A stretch of 64,000 nt of DNA, taken from the sequence record PP400777; one strand, 5' to 3'. The position numbers were made by a program, and so were the translations under genes. The notes below the pieces were generated by a model. The model made no database searches, was not told the origin of the DNA, and saw only the letters and a list, made by a program, of their open reading frames with translations. This stretch comes from Escherichia phage JM10. Below, piece by piece: positions 4,390 through 62,996 of this stretch; position 1 is the first letter of the stretch, and every line of letters begins with the position of its first letter.

Positions 4390-4418
4390 ATATTACCAAA
4401 ACCAGAGGAGAAGTAAAC
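4390..4418 (-). promoter_or_regulatory. sigma70-type early promoter (-35 GTTTAC, 17 nt, -10 TAATAT) with spacer/SD inverted repeat
   Basis: Minus strand GTTTACTTCTCCTCTGGTTTTGGTAATAT; spacer CTCCTCTGGTT complementary to AACCAGAGGAG at the SD. Confidence 0.6.
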
Positions 4419-5337: not shown

Positions 5338-5367
5338 ATTATACTCCATCCATCCTTGGATGTAAAA
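5338..5367 (-). promoter_or_regulatory. early promoter (-35 TTTTAC, -10 TATAAT)
   Basis: Minus strand TTTTACATCCAAGGATGGATGGAGTATAAT. Confidence 0.55.
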
Positions 5368-5894: not shown

Positions 5895-5924
5895 ATTATA
5901 CTCCAACCATCCTTGGATGTAAAC
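5895..5924 (-). promoter_or_regulatory. early promoter (-35 GTTTAC, 18 nt, -10 TATAAT)
   Basis: Minus strand GTTTACATCCAAGGATGGTTGGAGTATAAT; same spacer as promoters at 5338 and 47417. Confidence 0.6.
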
Positions 5925-14806: not shown

Positions 14807-15466
14807 TTAACCTCGATTCATAAATGCATTAAATATTTGGTCATCAACAGAAATTTCTAATTCGACTTCAATTGCTTCAGCCTTTTCTTCAAGTGGTAAT
14901 TCGTATCCACACACTACAATTTTTTCATCGATATCAAAATATACAGAAGCAATACGATTAATGTTATTTTCAGTTAAGTCTAAATCAACATCAACATCTT
15001 TTTGACCTACACTTAAAGGATAACTAATACGGGTTATTTTATTATCTTTAACAAAGAGACCACCAACATACTCTGTACTACGTTTGAAGTTTACACGTTT
15101 CCGAAATGAAAGATATGAGGCATCTTTACCATGAGCCCTGCTCATAGGACATAATGAATAGCTAGAATAAGAGATGTCAAATCCTACACCTTCAATATGA
15201 GCCAACGCGCCATGATTAAACCAATTATAATCATATGCCAAATCCATTATATTGTAATATGTGAAAGGCACAGGATTAACATCATATGTTGTACCTTTAA
15301 AATCTGCCCAGGCAACGATTTCGTTATCTTTAACAATTACAAAAATTACACCAATATGGTATCCGTTATTATTTTCATTCGGCGTTATATTATAACATTG
15401 CGCATTAGGAAATTTACCATATTTAAATGGCGCATTTTTGTGCATATAATAAATCATATTATTCAC
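14807..15466 (-). CDS. hypothetical protein, 219 aa (61.2 position)
   Basis: ORF track. Confidence 0.55.
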   Translation of the reverse strand: MNNMIYYMHKNAPFKYGKFPNAQCYNITPNENNNGYHIGVIFVIVKDNEIVAWADFKGTTYDVNPVPFTYYNIMDLAYDYNWFNHGALAHIEGVGFDISYSSYSLCPMSRAHGKDASYLSFRKRVNFKRSTEYVGGLFVKDNKITRISYPLSVGQKDVDVDLDLTENNINRIASVYFDIDEKIVVCGYELPLEEKAEAIEVELEISVDDQIFNAFMNRG

Positions 15467-15752
15467 CTGTGATTTCGGTTACGATATCTTTGTTATCGAA
15501 ATTAGGGTCACAATACAAAACATAGTTGTACTGCATGATACCGCCAGACTTAAGTTGTTCAACAACTTTATTAACCATATTAGGACGGTCTCGTTTAGTG
15601 ATGTTCATGATATCAGAGAAGATTTGTTGTTCAACATCTTCTTGATTTGCAGTCATTGACCACTCACAGAGGTCTTTATCATAACCTGCCGTAACTGGAG
15701 CCGGTGCACATGATACTGCAAGTAAGATTGCTGCCAATGATAACTTTTTCAT
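15459..15752 (-). CDS. sp: periplasmic protein with signal peptide, 97 aa (spackle-like by size and position)
   Basis: MKKLSLAAILLAVSCAPAPVTA signal peptide. Confidence 0.55.
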   Translation of the reverse strand: MKKLSLAAILLAVSCAPAPVTAGYDKDLCEWSMTANQEDVEQQIFSDIMNITKRDRPNMVNKVVEQLKSGGIMQYNYVLYCDPNFDNKDIVTEITGE

Positions 15753-15815
15753 TTTAACTCCTTAGTTGATTTGATAGGACTACTATACTATAGTCCATCT
15801 ATAATGTAAACAAGT

Positions 15816-16064
15816 TTATTCTTTTTCGCGAATAATAATTACTTGTTGAGGCTGCTGAGCAGATTTCTTTTCGGCAACGATAGACCAAATTAAAGTTCCA
15901 ATCCAACCAATCATCGTCCAGTTAAAGAGTAAAGATACAAAGAAGATTGCTGTTGTGCTTTTTGTGCCACGAATAAGTGCGATTACCCAAGGCAACATGT
16001 AAATGATGATTGAACCAATACCTGCGATTAAAACTGCTACTGAACTAGCTACGAATAATTCCAT
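15816..16064 (-). CDS. small membrane protein, superinfection-immunity (Imm)-like
   Basis: 82 aa, two TM; WVIALIRGTKSTTAIFFVSLLFNWTMIGWIGTLIWS. Confidence 0.5.
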   Translation of the reverse strand: MELFVASSVAVLIAGIGSIIIYMLPWVIALIRGTKSTTAIFFVSLLFNWTMIGWIGTLIWSIVAEKKSAQQPQQVIIIREKE

Positions 16065-38490: not shown

Positions 38491-38718
38491 TCATTCTATT
38501 TCCTTTGCTGCAAATAAGGCAGCATCCAACGAATCAAATTGGTCAACAAAATCAATATTTAACGCATCGTCAACCGTAGCATATAACCACCATTGTTTGA
38601 ATTCATATTCAAGAATAAATCCAGGACCTTCAATCTGAGGAAGACCTAGGCTATTTGTACCAACTTCGTAACCAGCTAGACGCAGGTCATTAATCAAAGT
38701 TTCTGTTAATACGCTCAT
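38491..38718 (-). CDS. hypothetical protein, 75 aa (55.x region)
   Basis: ORF track. Confidence 0.45.
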   Translation of the reverse strand: MSVLTETLINDLRLAGYEVGTNSLGLPQIEGPGFILEYEFKQWWLYATVDDALNIDFVDQFDSLDAALFAAKEIE

Positions 38719-39086
38719 TTTGCCGCCTTAACAATTTTCAGGTCAACGAATTTTTTCTTACGCTGATTTTTCATACGACGGATAGTCTTTTCAGAGATTT
38801 CATGTTTCTGATAAGCTTTAGATTCAACACCAAATGCAGCAACGTCAAATTCAGAAAGAATATATTGTACTAGAATTTCGCGAATAGAATTACGTCCAAT
38901 TTTCTGGTCGTGTTTTTGCATGATTTCATAAAGACGGAATTCCCACGCGTCAAGAACTTGAGGAGTAACAATATTGCCGGATTCCAGAAGAGCAACAACT
39001 TTATCGAAAGCGAAAGAATTAACTACGTTTTTGATTTTAGTAGACATATTATTTTCCTCGGTTATTTTATTATCCAATGAGAGCAT
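38715..39086 (-). CDS. hypothetical protein, 123 aa
   Basis: ORF track. Confidence 0.5.
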   Translation of the reverse strand: MLSLDNKITEENNMSTKIKNVVNSFAFDKVVALLESGNIVTPQVLDAWEFRLYEIMQKHDQKIGRNSIREILVQYILSEFDVAAFGVESKAYQKHEISEKTIRRMKNQRKKKFVDLKIVKAAK

Positions 39087-39116
39087 TATACTCTGCTCTC
39101 AAGAGTTTGTAAATCG

Positions 39117-47378: not shown

Positions 47379-47416
47379 AATATTTTCCTCTCGTTAAGAT
47401 AGAAAGATTATACTCC

Positions 47417-47445
47417 AACCATCCTTGGTTGTACATCATTCCTTA
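47417..47445 (-). promoter_or_regulatory. early promoter (-35 TGTACA, -10 TATAAT), same spacer cassette as promoters at 5338 and 5895
   Basis: Minus strand TGTACAACCAAGGATGGTTGGAGTATAAT. Confidence 0.5.
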
Positions 47446-49021: not shown

Positions 49022-49048
49022 GTTTTACCTCCAGTAGTTGATAGGTCT

Positions 49049-49077
49049 ATAATAACATAACCGTAGACCTTGTAAAC
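49049..49077 (-). promoter_or_regulatory. early promoter (-35 GTTTAC, 17 nt, TGTTATTAT)
   Basis: Minus strand GTTTACAAGGTCTACGGTTATGTTATTAT. Confidence 0.6.
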
Positions 49078-51195: not shown

Positions 51196-52182
51196 TTATT
51201 TATAGTAAGAATTATGATTTTCGAGATAGACTTGCTCAAGGAAATCATCCCAGAAACTCATATCTACTTTTTGTTGCATACCATTCTTGGCAGCTTGTTC
51301 CGATGCTTGTTCAACTTGGTCAACGATATCTTCTAGGAATTCTTGTACAGTTTTAAACGTATGTTTACCAAGCTTAACATCGAGAATAAATGGAGCATCC
51401 TGAAGTGGGTAAACCAGGTCGCCGGTTTTGTAAATTTCCAATAATTGAAGTCCACCACGACATGCATGACTCAATGCTTTCCAGTCAATACCTTCGTTGG
51501 CTTCAGCCTTACGAGCACGTTCGCCATAGTTCTCTTCCAGTTTAACCAGGATGGCATTGAACTCTTTATTGGTTAACGTATCTTGGAATTTACGGTCTAA
51601 CAGATTATAGAATGTTTGCTTACCTGTTTTCTCGTTTTCGGTTTCAACCCACGAAGCAAATTCACCTACAGGCAGAACATTCTTCATATGTGATAAACGA
51701 ATTACTGCACCATTATCAAAGTATTGTCCCCATTCATTAGAACGTTTAAGGGCTTGACGAAGAACAGCCAGTCGAGAACCCTTGACACCGTATTTAGAAG
51801 CTTGCTTACGGACATACCCTAAATAAGATTTCATGTTAGTGGTATAGAAACGAGACCTGTTATCTTGAATATACTTCCATACATCAGGCAAATCAGATTT
51901 AACTACTAGACTTTGTGGAGTGTGAAGCATATCTAATGCGACGGTTTCACCATCCGCAGCTAGTTTAAAGAAATATTTGAGACTATATAACTCATGGTCC
52001 ACGTCGTCTTTTGTGTTCTTAGAAGATGTGTTATTCGTGTTCTTGCTCATGTGTTCTTTAACGTTACCGGACAAGATATCACGAGCATGAGGGACATAAA
52101 TTTCTTTAAAATCGACGTCAGATTCAGGAGTAGACGTTCCATAAAGGTGGCTACCAAAGTAAGCCTTAACAATCGTTTTCAT
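51196..52182 (-). CDS. nucleotidyltransferase (Pol-beta superfamily) with C-terminal helical domain, 328 aa
   Basis: N-terminal YFGSHLYGTSTPESDVDF (G-S...D-x-D) and third acidic residue in VALDMLH. Confidence 0.55.
   Translation of the reverse strand: MKTIVKAYFGSHLYGTSTPESDVDFKEIYVPHARDILSGNVKEHMSKNTNNTSSKNTKDDVDHELYSLKYFFKLAADGETVALDMLHTPQSLVVKSDLPDVWKYIQDNRSRFYTTNMKSYLGYVRKQASKYGVKGSRLAVLRQALKRSNEWGQYFDNGAVIRLSHMKNVLPVGEFASWVETENEKTGKQTFYNLLDRKFQDTLTNKEFNAILVKLEENYGERARKAEANEGIDWKALSHACRGGLQLLEIYKTGDLVYPLQDAPFILDVKLGKHTFKTVQEFLEDIVDQVEQASEQAAKNGMQQKVDMSFWDDFLEQVYLENHNSYYK
51197..51204 (-). promoter_or_regulatory. late promoter TATAAATA upstream of the secreted-protein gene
   Basis: Plus tatttata at 51197-51204. 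Confidence 0.5.
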
Positions 52183-52580
52183 TATTTAGCCTTATATTCA
52201 AGAGTAGGACAGACTTTTTCTTTACGAGCTTTAAGGTATTCACCTATTAATGATTTCTTACGTTCAATAGGCTCAAGTCCATTTTTAATTCGTTCTTGGT
52301 TTTGCGCAATGAGCTCAATTTCTTTATAATATTTTCTGTCGTTATATTTGTCTAACAACCAAGACGGACCAATTACTAACCCGGTAGCAATAAAATCCAT
52401 GACTGCTACAATTAAAATGCCTAAACCAATTGAAGCCGGAACTAATGTCCATAGACTGCTAAAAACAAAGAATTTAGTTAAAATTTCCTGGCAAATGATT
52501 GTGACTGCTGCTAAAATCACAAATCCAATAATTGAAGCAGCCAATACCGGGATTAACGTTTTCCAAAAATAAGCACACAA
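52182..52580 (-). CDS. membrane protein, about 3 TM; start codon uncertain (track ORF begins at TTG)
   Basis: TM segments LIPVLAASIIGFVILAAVTIIC and LGILIVAVMDFIATGLVIG; stop overlaps the NTase start. Confidence 0.4.
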   Translation of the reverse strand: MCAYFWKTLIPVLAASIIGFVILAAVTIICQEILTKFFVFSSLWTLVPASIGLGILIVAVMDFIATGLVIGPSWLLDKYNDRKYYKEIELIAQNQERIKNGLEPIERKKSLIGEYLKARKEKVCPTLEYKAK

Positions 52581-53295: not shown

Positions 53296-53406
53296 TCATT
53301 TTACCATACTCGCTTCAATAAGATTCATTACACCATTTACCATGTTATACGTAAACATCGGATAATTGTATTGTATCACAACGTATACGATAAGCAAAAG
53401 TTTCAT
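53296..53406 (-). CDS. possible small hydrophobic peptide, 36 aa
   Basis: Hand translation MKLLLIVYVVIQYNYPMFTYNMVNGVMNLIEASMVK; SD GGAG; own early promoter; below track cutoff. Confidence 0.3.
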   Translation of the reverse strand: MKLLLIVYVVIQYNYPMFTYNMVNGVMNLIEASMVK

Positions 53407-53425
53407 TTTGTTCTCCATTTGTTTT

Positions 53426-53464
53426 GGTAGGACTACTATAACATAGTCCTACCAAGTTGTAAAC
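53426..53464 (-). promoter_or_regulatory. early promoter with perfect 10-bp palindrome flanking the -10
   Basis: Plus ggtaggacta-ctataaca-tagtcctacc; -35 GTTTAC at 53459-53464. Confidence 0.5.
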
Positions 53465-53926: not shown

Positions 53927-53958
53927 AAAGCCCCAACCTTTCGGAAGGGGCTAGTAAA

Positions 53959-57122: not shown

Positions 57123-57151
57123 ATAGTAACACAACTAGAGGAGAAGTAAAC
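57123..57151 (-). promoter_or_regulatory. early promoter upstream of regB with perfect 12-bp spacer/SD inverted repeat
   Basis: Minus strand GTTTACTTCTCCTCTAGTTGTGTTACTAT; CTCCTCTAGTTG (57103-57114, SD) complementary to CAACTAGAGGAG (57132-57143). Confidence 0.65.
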
Positions 57152-59177: not shown

Positions 59178-59480
59178 TTATTTACCTTTAATTACTTTAG
59201 CTGCTTCGATAGCCGCTTGCTGAAGGTCATCCATAGACATACCGAATTTAGAAGCAAAGTTATCAATTTTCTTTTCGACAGCATTCAAAGGCTTTGCCTG
59301 TTTACCTTCATTAGCGCCAGGAAGAGCGAGAATACGCTCTTTGTCAATATAAAGGCTTACAAGTTTCTTACGGTCTTTATCGGACAAATCATGAAATGAA
59401 TGGGCCTTTTTATTTATAGCGGCTTCTAATTTACCTGCACTCACTCGCGCTTCAGTAATAAATTCTTGATAGGTTTTCAT
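59178..59480 (-). CDS. internal protein (IPII-like) with capsid-targeting N-terminus
   Basis: 100 aa; starts MKTYQEFITEA. Confidence 0.7.
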   Translation of the reverse strand: MKTYQEFITEARVSAGKLEAAINKKAHSFHDLSDKDRKKLVSLYIDKERILALPGANEGKQAKPLNAVEKKIDNFASKFGMSMDDLQQAAIEAAKVIKGK

Positions 59481-59508
59481 GTGTTTCCTTGTTTGTTTTG
59501 ATAGAGTA

Positions 59509-59538
59509 ATTATACCATATTAATACTTAAGCGTAAAC
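59509..59538 (-). promoter_or_regulatory. early promoter (-35 GTTTAC, 18 nt, -10 TATAAT)
   Basis: Plus attata 59509-59514 and gtaaac 59533-59538. Confidence 0.5.
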
Positions 59539-59804: not shown

Positions 59805-59971
59805 TTTTCCTTAGTAAATTGATTTACCAAAGTATTTGTACCAAGTCGGGCGTTGAGCAATTTTTTATCTAAGCGTGCTTGACTTATCGCAATGGACGCT
59901 TCGGACGGGTCATAATTTCCTCCAAGTAGTTGATGAATGTATAGTATCAAAACCCTTGGAGGAAGTAAACA

Positions 59972-62632: not shown

Positions 62633-62938
62633 TTATTTTCCTCGGCATTCTTTAATGAAATTTTCTAGATTGGTAGATTCAATAGCTTTTTTACGAGCTT
62701 CTGCGTGTTCTTCTTCGGACAATTTACATTTATAATTGACCCAGACATTATGGTCAAAACTAGTCGTGGCATATAATAACAAAGCTCCGACGAATAATAA
62801 AAACGGTGATAAGAATACAAAACCAGGAACACCATCCATACTGTAAGCCTTTTGTAATACTGCAACAGAAAGAGCTACGTAAAAAGGTGTTGCAAATATT
62901 GTAAAAAGACCGATTCGATTGGTTTCGCCTAATTTCAT
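62633..62938 (-). CDS. membrane protein, 101 aa
   Basis: Two TM helices; palindrome-containing early promoter upstream. Confidence 0.5.
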   Translation of the reverse strand: MKLGETNRIGLFTIFATPFYVALSVAVLQKAYSMDGVPGFVFLSPFLLFVGALLLYATTSFDHNVWVNYKCKLSEEEHAEARKKAIESTNLENFIKECRGK

Positions 62939-62959
62939 AATATTCTCCTCATGTTTTAA

Positions 62960-62996
62960 TAGGACTACTATAACATAGTCCTATAATTGTGTAAAC
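62960..62996 (-). promoter_or_regulatory. early promoter with TAGGACTA/TAGTCCTA palindrome flanking the -10
   Basis: Plus taggacta-ctataaca-tagtccta; -35 GTTTAC at 62991-62996. Confidence 0.5.

Follow-up and report, generated by a model that had tools for sequence, protein, structure and literature searches.

Palindromes around the -10 element of early promoters in an RB69-like phage are best read as RNA stem-loops of a PeSL-type cassette

At three early promoters in a 64,000-nucleotide stretch of phage DNA (the window, meaning the whole stretch analyzed), the same inverted repeat surrounds the -10 element, which raises the question of whether it is an operator for a dimeric DNA-binding protein or a hairpin in RNA that reads into the promoter from upstream. 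An earlier note on this DNA had offered both readings. The source phage is, judged from its sequence, an RB69-like T-even phage of the genus Mosigvirus, and the 2 kb around the palindrome are 96 to 98% identical to those of about 150 Escherichia and Shigella phages of that genus. Small insertions and deletions distinguish the window from the nearest complete genomes, which suggests that its own genome is a mosaic.

A search of the window for GGACTA-N8-TAGTCC returned exactly three matches (53430-53449, 62962-62981, and 15777-15796), whereas 0.00 were expected by chance (100 dinucleotide-preserving shuffles), and allowing up to two mismatches added no copies within the 64 kb. The three-copy dyad is thus real. 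The coordinates first given for it are correct for the arms at two sites, A and B, but the third, C, lies at 15777-15796 rather than at 15785-15804, a displacement of 8 nt. Similarly, the description of a perfect palindrome holds for A, a 12+12-nt inverted repeat (53424-53435 and 53444-53455) with 8 nt between its arms, and for B, a 9+9-nt repeat at 62959-62984, but at C complementarity is perfect over 6+6 nt only (ATGGACTA versus TAGTCCTA on the gene strand). A general listing of inverted repeats in the window consists mostly of AT-rich overlapping palindromes, and A is the only one of these sites that it confirms. Sites D and E are further dyad-type promoters beyond the three originally noted, such that the window holds three exact and two variant copies with three kinds of arm.

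Site A, 53424..53464, minus strand: predicted early promoter with embedded stem-loop (from inverted repeat, promoter scan, and folding); GTTTAC at 53464-53459 and -10 TATAGT at 53440-53435; 5' arm at 53444-53455, in the spacer, and 3' arm at 53424-53435 (-7 to +5); probable start near 53428; downstream gene, a 36-aa ORF at 53296-53406 (phrog_3515).

Site B, 62959..62996, minus strand: predicted early promoter with embedded stem-loop (from repeat, promoter scan, and folding); GTTTAC at 62996-62991 and -10 TATAGT at 62972-62967; arms at 62976-62984 and 62959-62967; probable start near 62960; downstream gene at 62633-62938 (101 aa, phrog_9798).

Site C, 15775..15811, minus strand: predicted early promoter with a weaker embedded stem-loop (from repeat, promoter scan, and folding); GTTTAC at 15811-15806 and -10 TATAGT at 15787-15782; perfect 6-bp arms at 15791-15796 and 15777-15782; located between imm (15816-16064) and the spackle gene sp (15459-15752).

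Site D, 39078..39114, minus strand: 8/8/8 geometry (arm, loop, and arm) with different arms, ATTTAC-N7-TGAGAGCA-gagtataa-TGCTCTCA; dyad TGAGAGCA-N8-TGCTCTCA at 39078-39101; -10 TATAAT at 39090-39085; promoter scan, 11/12; downstream ORF at 38715-39047 (phrog_1475).

Site E, 49043..49077, minus strand: looser relative, AGGTCTA-N14-TAGACCT; GTTTAC at 49077-49072; arms AGGTCTA at 49064-49070 and TAGACCT at 49043-49049, bracketing the -10 with a 14-nt loop.

The early genes at A, B, and C are all on the minus strand, and those downstream are mutually unrelated (the phrog_3515 ORF, the phrog_9798 protein, and spackle); in general, genes that follow dyad sites are small and mostly of unassigned function. 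The TAG stop of the ORF upstream of site A (53466-53464) shares its G with GTTTAC. Annotated neighbors of this site in related phages include tk, rI, and small unnamed ORFs. Several records label the adjoining 30-aa ORF "helicase loader" (PQ480333.1; locus L001, 3298-3390), which looks like an annotation artifact, since gp59 of phage JS09 (22125-22763) is distant and lies beside gene 32. Elsewhere in the window, at about 52182, a nucleotidyltransferase ORF (51196-52182) abuts a membrane-protein ORF (52182-52580), and the homing endonuclease gene that occupies this position in NRG-P0074 (locus L001, 1501-2283) is missing. On the minus strand at about 59480-59538, a promoter at 59538 precedes an ORF starting MKTYQ, a start that presumably resembles the leader of T-even internal proteins; the Ip10 and IpII genes are annotated in the matching region of JS09.

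On the gene strand, A, B, and C read GTTTAC-N7-[TAGGACTA]-[TGTTATAG]-[TAGTCCTA]. All three contain TTTACA-17-TATAGT (that is, GTTTAC-N18-TATAGT) and score 10/12 in the promoter scan, and A and B also possess a TG extended -10 (TGn). The regions upstream of dyad promoters are A/T-rich. GTTTAC is the T4 early -35 motif (PMC1524935), and the RB69 orthologue of site A is the predicted early promoter Pe:57689 (Nolan 2006, Additional file 3). The assignment of these sites as promoters is borne out, and A, B, and C are supported as predicted early promoters of the T4 type.

Nolan et al. (PMC1524935) number the hexamer -12 to -7 and report that RB69 early promoters have C at -3 to -1, and by this geometry the start would fall at the last A of TAGTCCTA. 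The 8-nt left arm begins exactly 7 nt from GTTTAC at all three sites and fills the promoter spacer (about -25 to -18), the extended -10 forms the 8-nt loop TGTTATAG, and positions -7 to about +1 make up the right arm. Cassettes can therefore be sought in a precise register of 8-nt arm, 8-nt loop (the extended -10), and 8-nt arm. The axis of the dyad lies between -12 and -11, the upstream edge of the hexamer, and its earlier description as centered on the -10 is approximately correct. The intergenic gaps at A, B, and C are 57, 70, and 63 nt, each of them wholly occupied by the cassette.

Folded as RNA, the hairpins have predicted energies of -20.6 kcal/mol at A (z = -4.8), -15.2 kcal/mol at B (z = -3.5), -11.1 kcal/mol at C (z = -1.7), and -12.7 kcal/mol at E (z = -1.8). 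Dyad stems are 8 to 13 bp long, straddle the -10, and enclose loops of 6 to 8 nt. They end 10 to 20 nt short of the Shine-Dalgarno sequence and, leaving it uncovered, would not gate translation as other promoter hairpins in the window could. Because the 5' arm is in the spacer and the 3' arm ends at about +1, the transcript of the promoter itself would lack the hairpin, and only RNA reading through from the upstream gene should be able to form it.

Canonical intrinsic termination is unlikely, since the stems are followed not by a U-tract but by A-rich tails (such as CCAAAACAAAUGG), and none of them was flagged at these sites in the terminator scan. The definition of a rho-independent terminator, a G+C-rich stem and then a U-run, does not fit them on the same two grounds. 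For phage SA35RD, the record lists the site A orthologue as a rho-independent terminator (OL960577.1, 57380-57421; locus L429, 410-451); this annotation derives from WebGeSTer/TransTermHP, yet that hairpin also has no U-tract after it. Rfam returned no match at the gathering score anywhere in the window and chance-level matches at E values up to 1 near site A. A loop resembling the gp43 operator (UAAC) was dropped as a candidate, this sequence being present only on the antisense strand of the loop, and translational coupling through a terminating ribosome was weighed among the discarded readings.

Scans of IMG/VR and BLAST searches detect the cassette in many T4-like phages, where it precedes different genes. 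Mosigvirus genomes have 6 to 10 dyad places each, whereas Tequatrovirus, Dhakavirus, CC31-like, and Acinetobacter phages have single ones; no copy occurs within the 4 kb of T4 that were examined (50-54 kb). In 100 kb, JS09 contains nine dyad promoters, whose arms share one register but have at least six different sequences, and the arms of site D (TGAGAGCA/TGCTCTCA) also precede ndd in that phage.

The variation among these copies indicates which property of the arms is maintained. In a first pass, one arm was fixed in the search pattern and the other was read off, and the variants recovered were nearly all transitions that produce G.U on the gene strand (TAGGACTG, TAGGATTA, TAGGGCTA, TGGTCCTA, and TAGTTCTA), the exception being ATGGACTA at site C. 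Right arms with T for A (AGTCC) were always accompanied by left arms with the matching A (GGACT). Patterns leaving both arms free yielded mostly random matches in IMG/VR, with four promoter sequences gained among the matches listed. Covariation was assessed in 43 distinct T4-like promoters, aligned without gaps over a 12-bp stem. In this set, 81.8% of cells are paired, as opposed to 74.5% in shuffles (0 of 500 as high), and pairing is only 25 to 52% when the 3' partner is slid. Both sides vary in 9 of the 12 stem pairs, and cells with changes on both sides number 41, as opposed to 13.5 in shuffles (0 of 500). Entire arms are replaced with complementarity kept (AGGACTA/TAGTCCT, AGGGCCA/TGGCCCT, AGGAGCA/TGCTCCT, AGGGTTA/TAGCCCT, AAGACTA/TAGTCTT, and TGAGAGCA/TGCTCTCA), and the outer pairs alternate between GG/CC and GA/TC. 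Across the window and JS09, 12 of 59 promoter-like sites pair at 7 or more of 8 positions in the exact 8/8/8 register, compared with about 3 of 354 slid-register controls. The right arm overlaps the promoter consensus from about -6 to +1 (TAGaCCTA elsewhere), and part of its conservation is therefore owed to the promoter.

These patterns provide good support for selection on the pairing of one strand, the gene strand, with the sequence of the arms free to vary, that is, for a structural constraint, and the strand so constrained is probably RNA. Among the inner nine pairs, the gene strand has 30 G.U and 10 A.C cells, a suggestive bias in counts of cells, many of which come from related sequences. 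Because single-stranded DNA hairpins also tolerate G.T wobble, the asymmetry reveals that the sense strand behaves as a single strand, not that this strand is RNA. Selection on pairing of the gene strand nevertheless points to a job in RNA rather than in duplex DNA.

The same data bear on the operator reading, in which a dimeric phage or host protein binds over the -10 and shuts off some early promoters. Its appeal is that a perfect palindrome of 8 to 12 bp overlaps the -10 at three unlinked promoters and that the same arms recur in many Mosigvirus genomes, at 6 to 10 places each; moreover, the mechanism by which T4 early promoters are shut off is described as not fully understood in the cited portions of two reviews (PMC3014915 and PMC2988021). 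Against a fixed operator stand the covariation of the arms and the presence of several arm versions in one genome, other complementary sequences occupying the same register (at least six versions in JS09), which argue for a single-strand structure. The outer stem pairs covary freely (GG/CC versus GA/TC). The bias of deviations toward G.U on one strand, although its counts are not phylogenetically independent, would be meaningless for duplex DNA. The half-site centers are 16 bp apart, or about 1.5 helical turns, which would place them on opposite faces of the helix, and the dyad is present in a minority of early promoters only. Of the two readings first proposed, the operator is thus disfavored, and the hairpin in read-through RNA, which fits both the anatomy and the covariation, is the better.

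The recurrence of the same arms at unlinked loci had been taken as an argument for function, which is valid only in part, since cassettes of about 45 bp are copied and recombined between loci. This is most evident at site B, where the window has one promoter and JS09 has two, situated around an extra 66-aa ORF (JS09_048). Relative to JS09 (KF582788.2, 102471-102734), the window is without a 263-bp module consisting of JS09_048 and one promoter. The remaining promoter is a hybrid: its upstream flank and GTTTAC are those of the first JS09 promoter, its dyad and leader those of the second, and the junction is in the -35 (62990-62996). Among 14 records spread across the 161 that match, site B has three architectures: the single-promoter form of the window, a form with a 268-bp insertion, and one in which homology starts at query position 185 or 197, corresponding to the -35 or the left arm. 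Tandem dyad promoters around one small ORF also occur in phiE142 (locus L005), where they are 328 bp apart, and tandem cassettes around one ORF occur in JS09. The site A module has both flanks unlike those of JS09, although most relatives conserve it; at site C, between imm and sp, conservation extends to 154 of 155 records; and together C and A are conserved junctions in about 130 to 154 Mosigvirus records. From these alignments, the cassette can be a crossover point, but not at every locus.

The dyad also fits a broader tendency in this genome for promoter spacers to pair with the leader downstream. The window has 22 GTTTAC promoters, and in about 9 of them the spacer is complementary to the Shine-Dalgarno region of the gene that follows, as in the promoter at 57151 (TTCTCCTCTAGTTG ... 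CAACTAGAGGAGAA). Minus-strand promoters of this class have GTTTAC starts at 4418, 17329, 53913, and 57151, with more at 59970, 59175, 40241, 17763, and 10443. Their spacers read TTCTCC..., and the stems extend up to 14 bp, with energies of -21 to -23 kcal/mol over a promoter segment of about 75 nt. Duplexes between spacers and their downstream regions average -11.2 kcal/mol when matched and -7.0 kcal/mol when mismatched (permutation test, P < 5e-5). One T4 promoter (record position 53943) shows spacer/Shine-Dalgarno pairing as well. At such promoters, the predicted read-through RNA would bury the ribosome binding site and the transcript of the promoter itself would not, a predicted pairing that makes sense only at the RNA level. 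Because the use of the spacer as a 5' arm is common in the genome and is sensible only as RNA in the Shine-Dalgarno class, the RNA reading of the dyad gains support by analogy. The literature searched contained no description of spacer/Shine-Dalgarno pairing at early promoters and no transcript-end maps for T4-like phages. A different cassette, TACATCCAAGGATGGnTGGAGTATAAT, occurs in three copies on the minus strand (5338-5364, 5895-5921, and 47407-47433; 0.00 expected by chance), two of which are in tandem, 557 nt apart.

Considering all of these features, the palindrome is probably the stem-loop half of a cassette of the PeSL type and may serve as a boundary element on read-through RNA. A PeSL combines an early promoter with a stem-loop, mostly between the -35 and -10 or over the -10, and with a Shine-Dalgarno sequence (PMC2839356). 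Each cassette of 57 to 70 nt would unite a strong T4-type early promoter, a stem-loop around its -10, and the Shine-Dalgarno sequence that serves the gene downstream. Transcripts arriving from the upstream gene would fold the stem just before the next ribosome binding site, and the element most likely works as RNA on these read-through transcripts. Our best guess is that the stem-loop marks the boundary between neighboring early cistrons, either by attenuating read-through or by providing a stable 3' end or processing point, which is the role proposed for PeSL stem-loops in the cited portions of Arbiol 2010 (PMC2839356) and Comeau 2014 (PMC4122927). We infer the transcription start, the read-through RNA, and the boundary function, and what the hairpin does at the RNA level is guesswork. 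Occurring at many loci, the cassette of about 45 bp would also offer homology for the insertion, deletion, or exchange of small early genes.

A broader possibility, offered tentatively, is that a 5' arm carried in the spacer is a genome-wide design of RB69-like early promoters, with RNA structure set by where the transcript starts. Were this so, promoter-proximal transcripts would be unstructured, and read-through RNA would form one of two hairpins: a boundary hairpin in the dyad class (about 4 or 5 of 22 to 26 promoters) or, at about 9 of 22, one that buries the Shine-Dalgarno sequence. The promoter of each small early gene would then be essentially its sole source of expression, and shut-off of the early promoters would silence the gene despite upstream RNA crossing it. 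Spacers acting generally as 5' arms, including those of the Shine-Dalgarno-burying class, may be the more interesting lead.

Other explanations account for less of the evidence. An unlikely one, although the best of those remaining, is that the repeat is a recombination signal in DNA, with a hairpin or cruciform in the phage DNA (in single-stranded replication or recombination intermediates) targeting the exchange of small genes. Such a signal accords with the junction at site B, where several lineages have their breakpoints at the -35 or left arm, and with the small ORF flanked by tandem dyad promoters in phiE142; the strand bias does not count against it, given the tolerance of G.T wobble in single-stranded DNA hairpins. 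Mini-circles arise at the PeSLs of RB49/phi1, for which a recombination protein binding the stem-loop has been speculated (PMC2839356, in the cited portions). But exchange by homology requires identity, not self-complementarity, and leaves the compensatory changes unexplained; moreover, most relatives keep sites C and A as stable junctions, and the same spacer-arm design is used by the Shine-Dalgarno hairpins, where it is sensible only as RNA.

Less probable still is a frozen accident, whereby three copies of one promoter cassette were spread by duplication and recombination and the palindrome is functionless. Movement of cassettes between loci is demonstrated, the three copies have about 40 nt in common outside the arms (the -35, the spacing, the loop, and the 5' leader), and the right arm differs from the general promoter consensus TAGACCTA at one base, all as an accident of copying would have it. 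However, functionless copies would not be expected to show compensatory substitutions at 9 of 12 pairs, pairing far above both shuffled and slid controls, different arms in an identical register, or the invariable matching of AGTCC right arms by GGACT left arms. Finally, an operator for an undiscovered repressor of early promoters is very improbable for the reasons given above, and much less likely than the genome-wide spacer design.

The comparison with known systems leads to the same preference for the PeSL-type stem-loop. Classical operators, such as those of LexA or of the lambda type, keep the sequence of their half-sites, which are usually about 1 or 2 helical turns apart. The dyads described here share with them the symmetry over the core promoter, but in the dyads the arm sequence drifts while pairing stays, and the half-sites are 1.5 turns apart.

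A closer parallel in anatomy is provided by T4 genes e, soc, 49, and I-TevI, at which a late promoter is located in the 5' strand of an inhibitory RNA structure, as described in the cited portions of Uzan and Miller 2010 (PMC3014915). There, as at the dyads, the promoter is in the DNA of the 5' arm, such that its own transcripts are without this arm and longer transcripts from upstream fold. Those promoters, however, are late and their structures sequester the ribosome binding site, whereas the dyad promoters are early and would leave the Shine-Dalgarno sequence free. The early promoters of the window whose spacers pair with the Shine-Dalgarno region share the principle of these T4 genes. Promoter/stem-loop elements also flank the internal-protein (IP) genes of T-even phages (Repoila et al. 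1994, via the cited portions of PMC2839356). By the description in that paper, these elements resemble the dyads in having T4-type early promoters, weaker AT-rich stem-loops, and a part in the shuffling of small genes, but differ in being confined to IP loci.

The nearest match is to the PeSLs themselves. In the cited portions of PMC2839356, those of RB49/phi1 have demonstrated promoter and terminator activity, generate mini-circles by recombination, and are repeated in plastic regions of the genome; those of T4/PST combine TTTACW-N17-TAYWAT promoters with AGNA-loop-TCNT stems (PMC4122927, cited portions). The catalogues in these portions cover RB49/phi1, T4/PST, and KVP40/nt-1 and not RB69-like phages, and contain neither a covariation analysis nor an analysis of gene-strand G.U pairs (PMC2839356 and PMC4122927). 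The stems differ to some extent: those of RB49 are G/C-rich (GGGG...CCCC) and act as terminators, whereas the dyad stems are A/U-richer and without a U-tract, and those of PST are placed "just upstream" of the promoter (PMC4122927, Fig. 3 legend, the part cited), whereas the dyads straddle the -10 in a fixed 8/8/8 register. In other respects the likeness is close. The AGNA...TCNT stems of T4/PST match AGGA(CTA)...(TAG)TCCT here, and A, B, and C each combine an intergenic promoter and stem-loop with the Shine-Dalgarno sequence and start of the next gene. As with PeSLs, there are many copies per genome, mostly before small genes of unassigned function, and close relatives differ by insertions, deletions, and swaps, which are seen here at site B and partly at A, but not at C. 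By sequence, several features of a PeSL are present: an early promoter and a stable stem-loop at the -10, intergenic and repeated in the genome. If this holds, then rather than a site for a new regulator to bind, the palindrome is the RB69-group version of a known cassette, already proposed to insulate and shuffle the small early genes of T4-type phages, and these sites would be annotated as early promoters with an embedded stem-loop rather than as operators or plain terminators. A, B, and C are best read as a predicted RB69-group variant of the PeSL kind.
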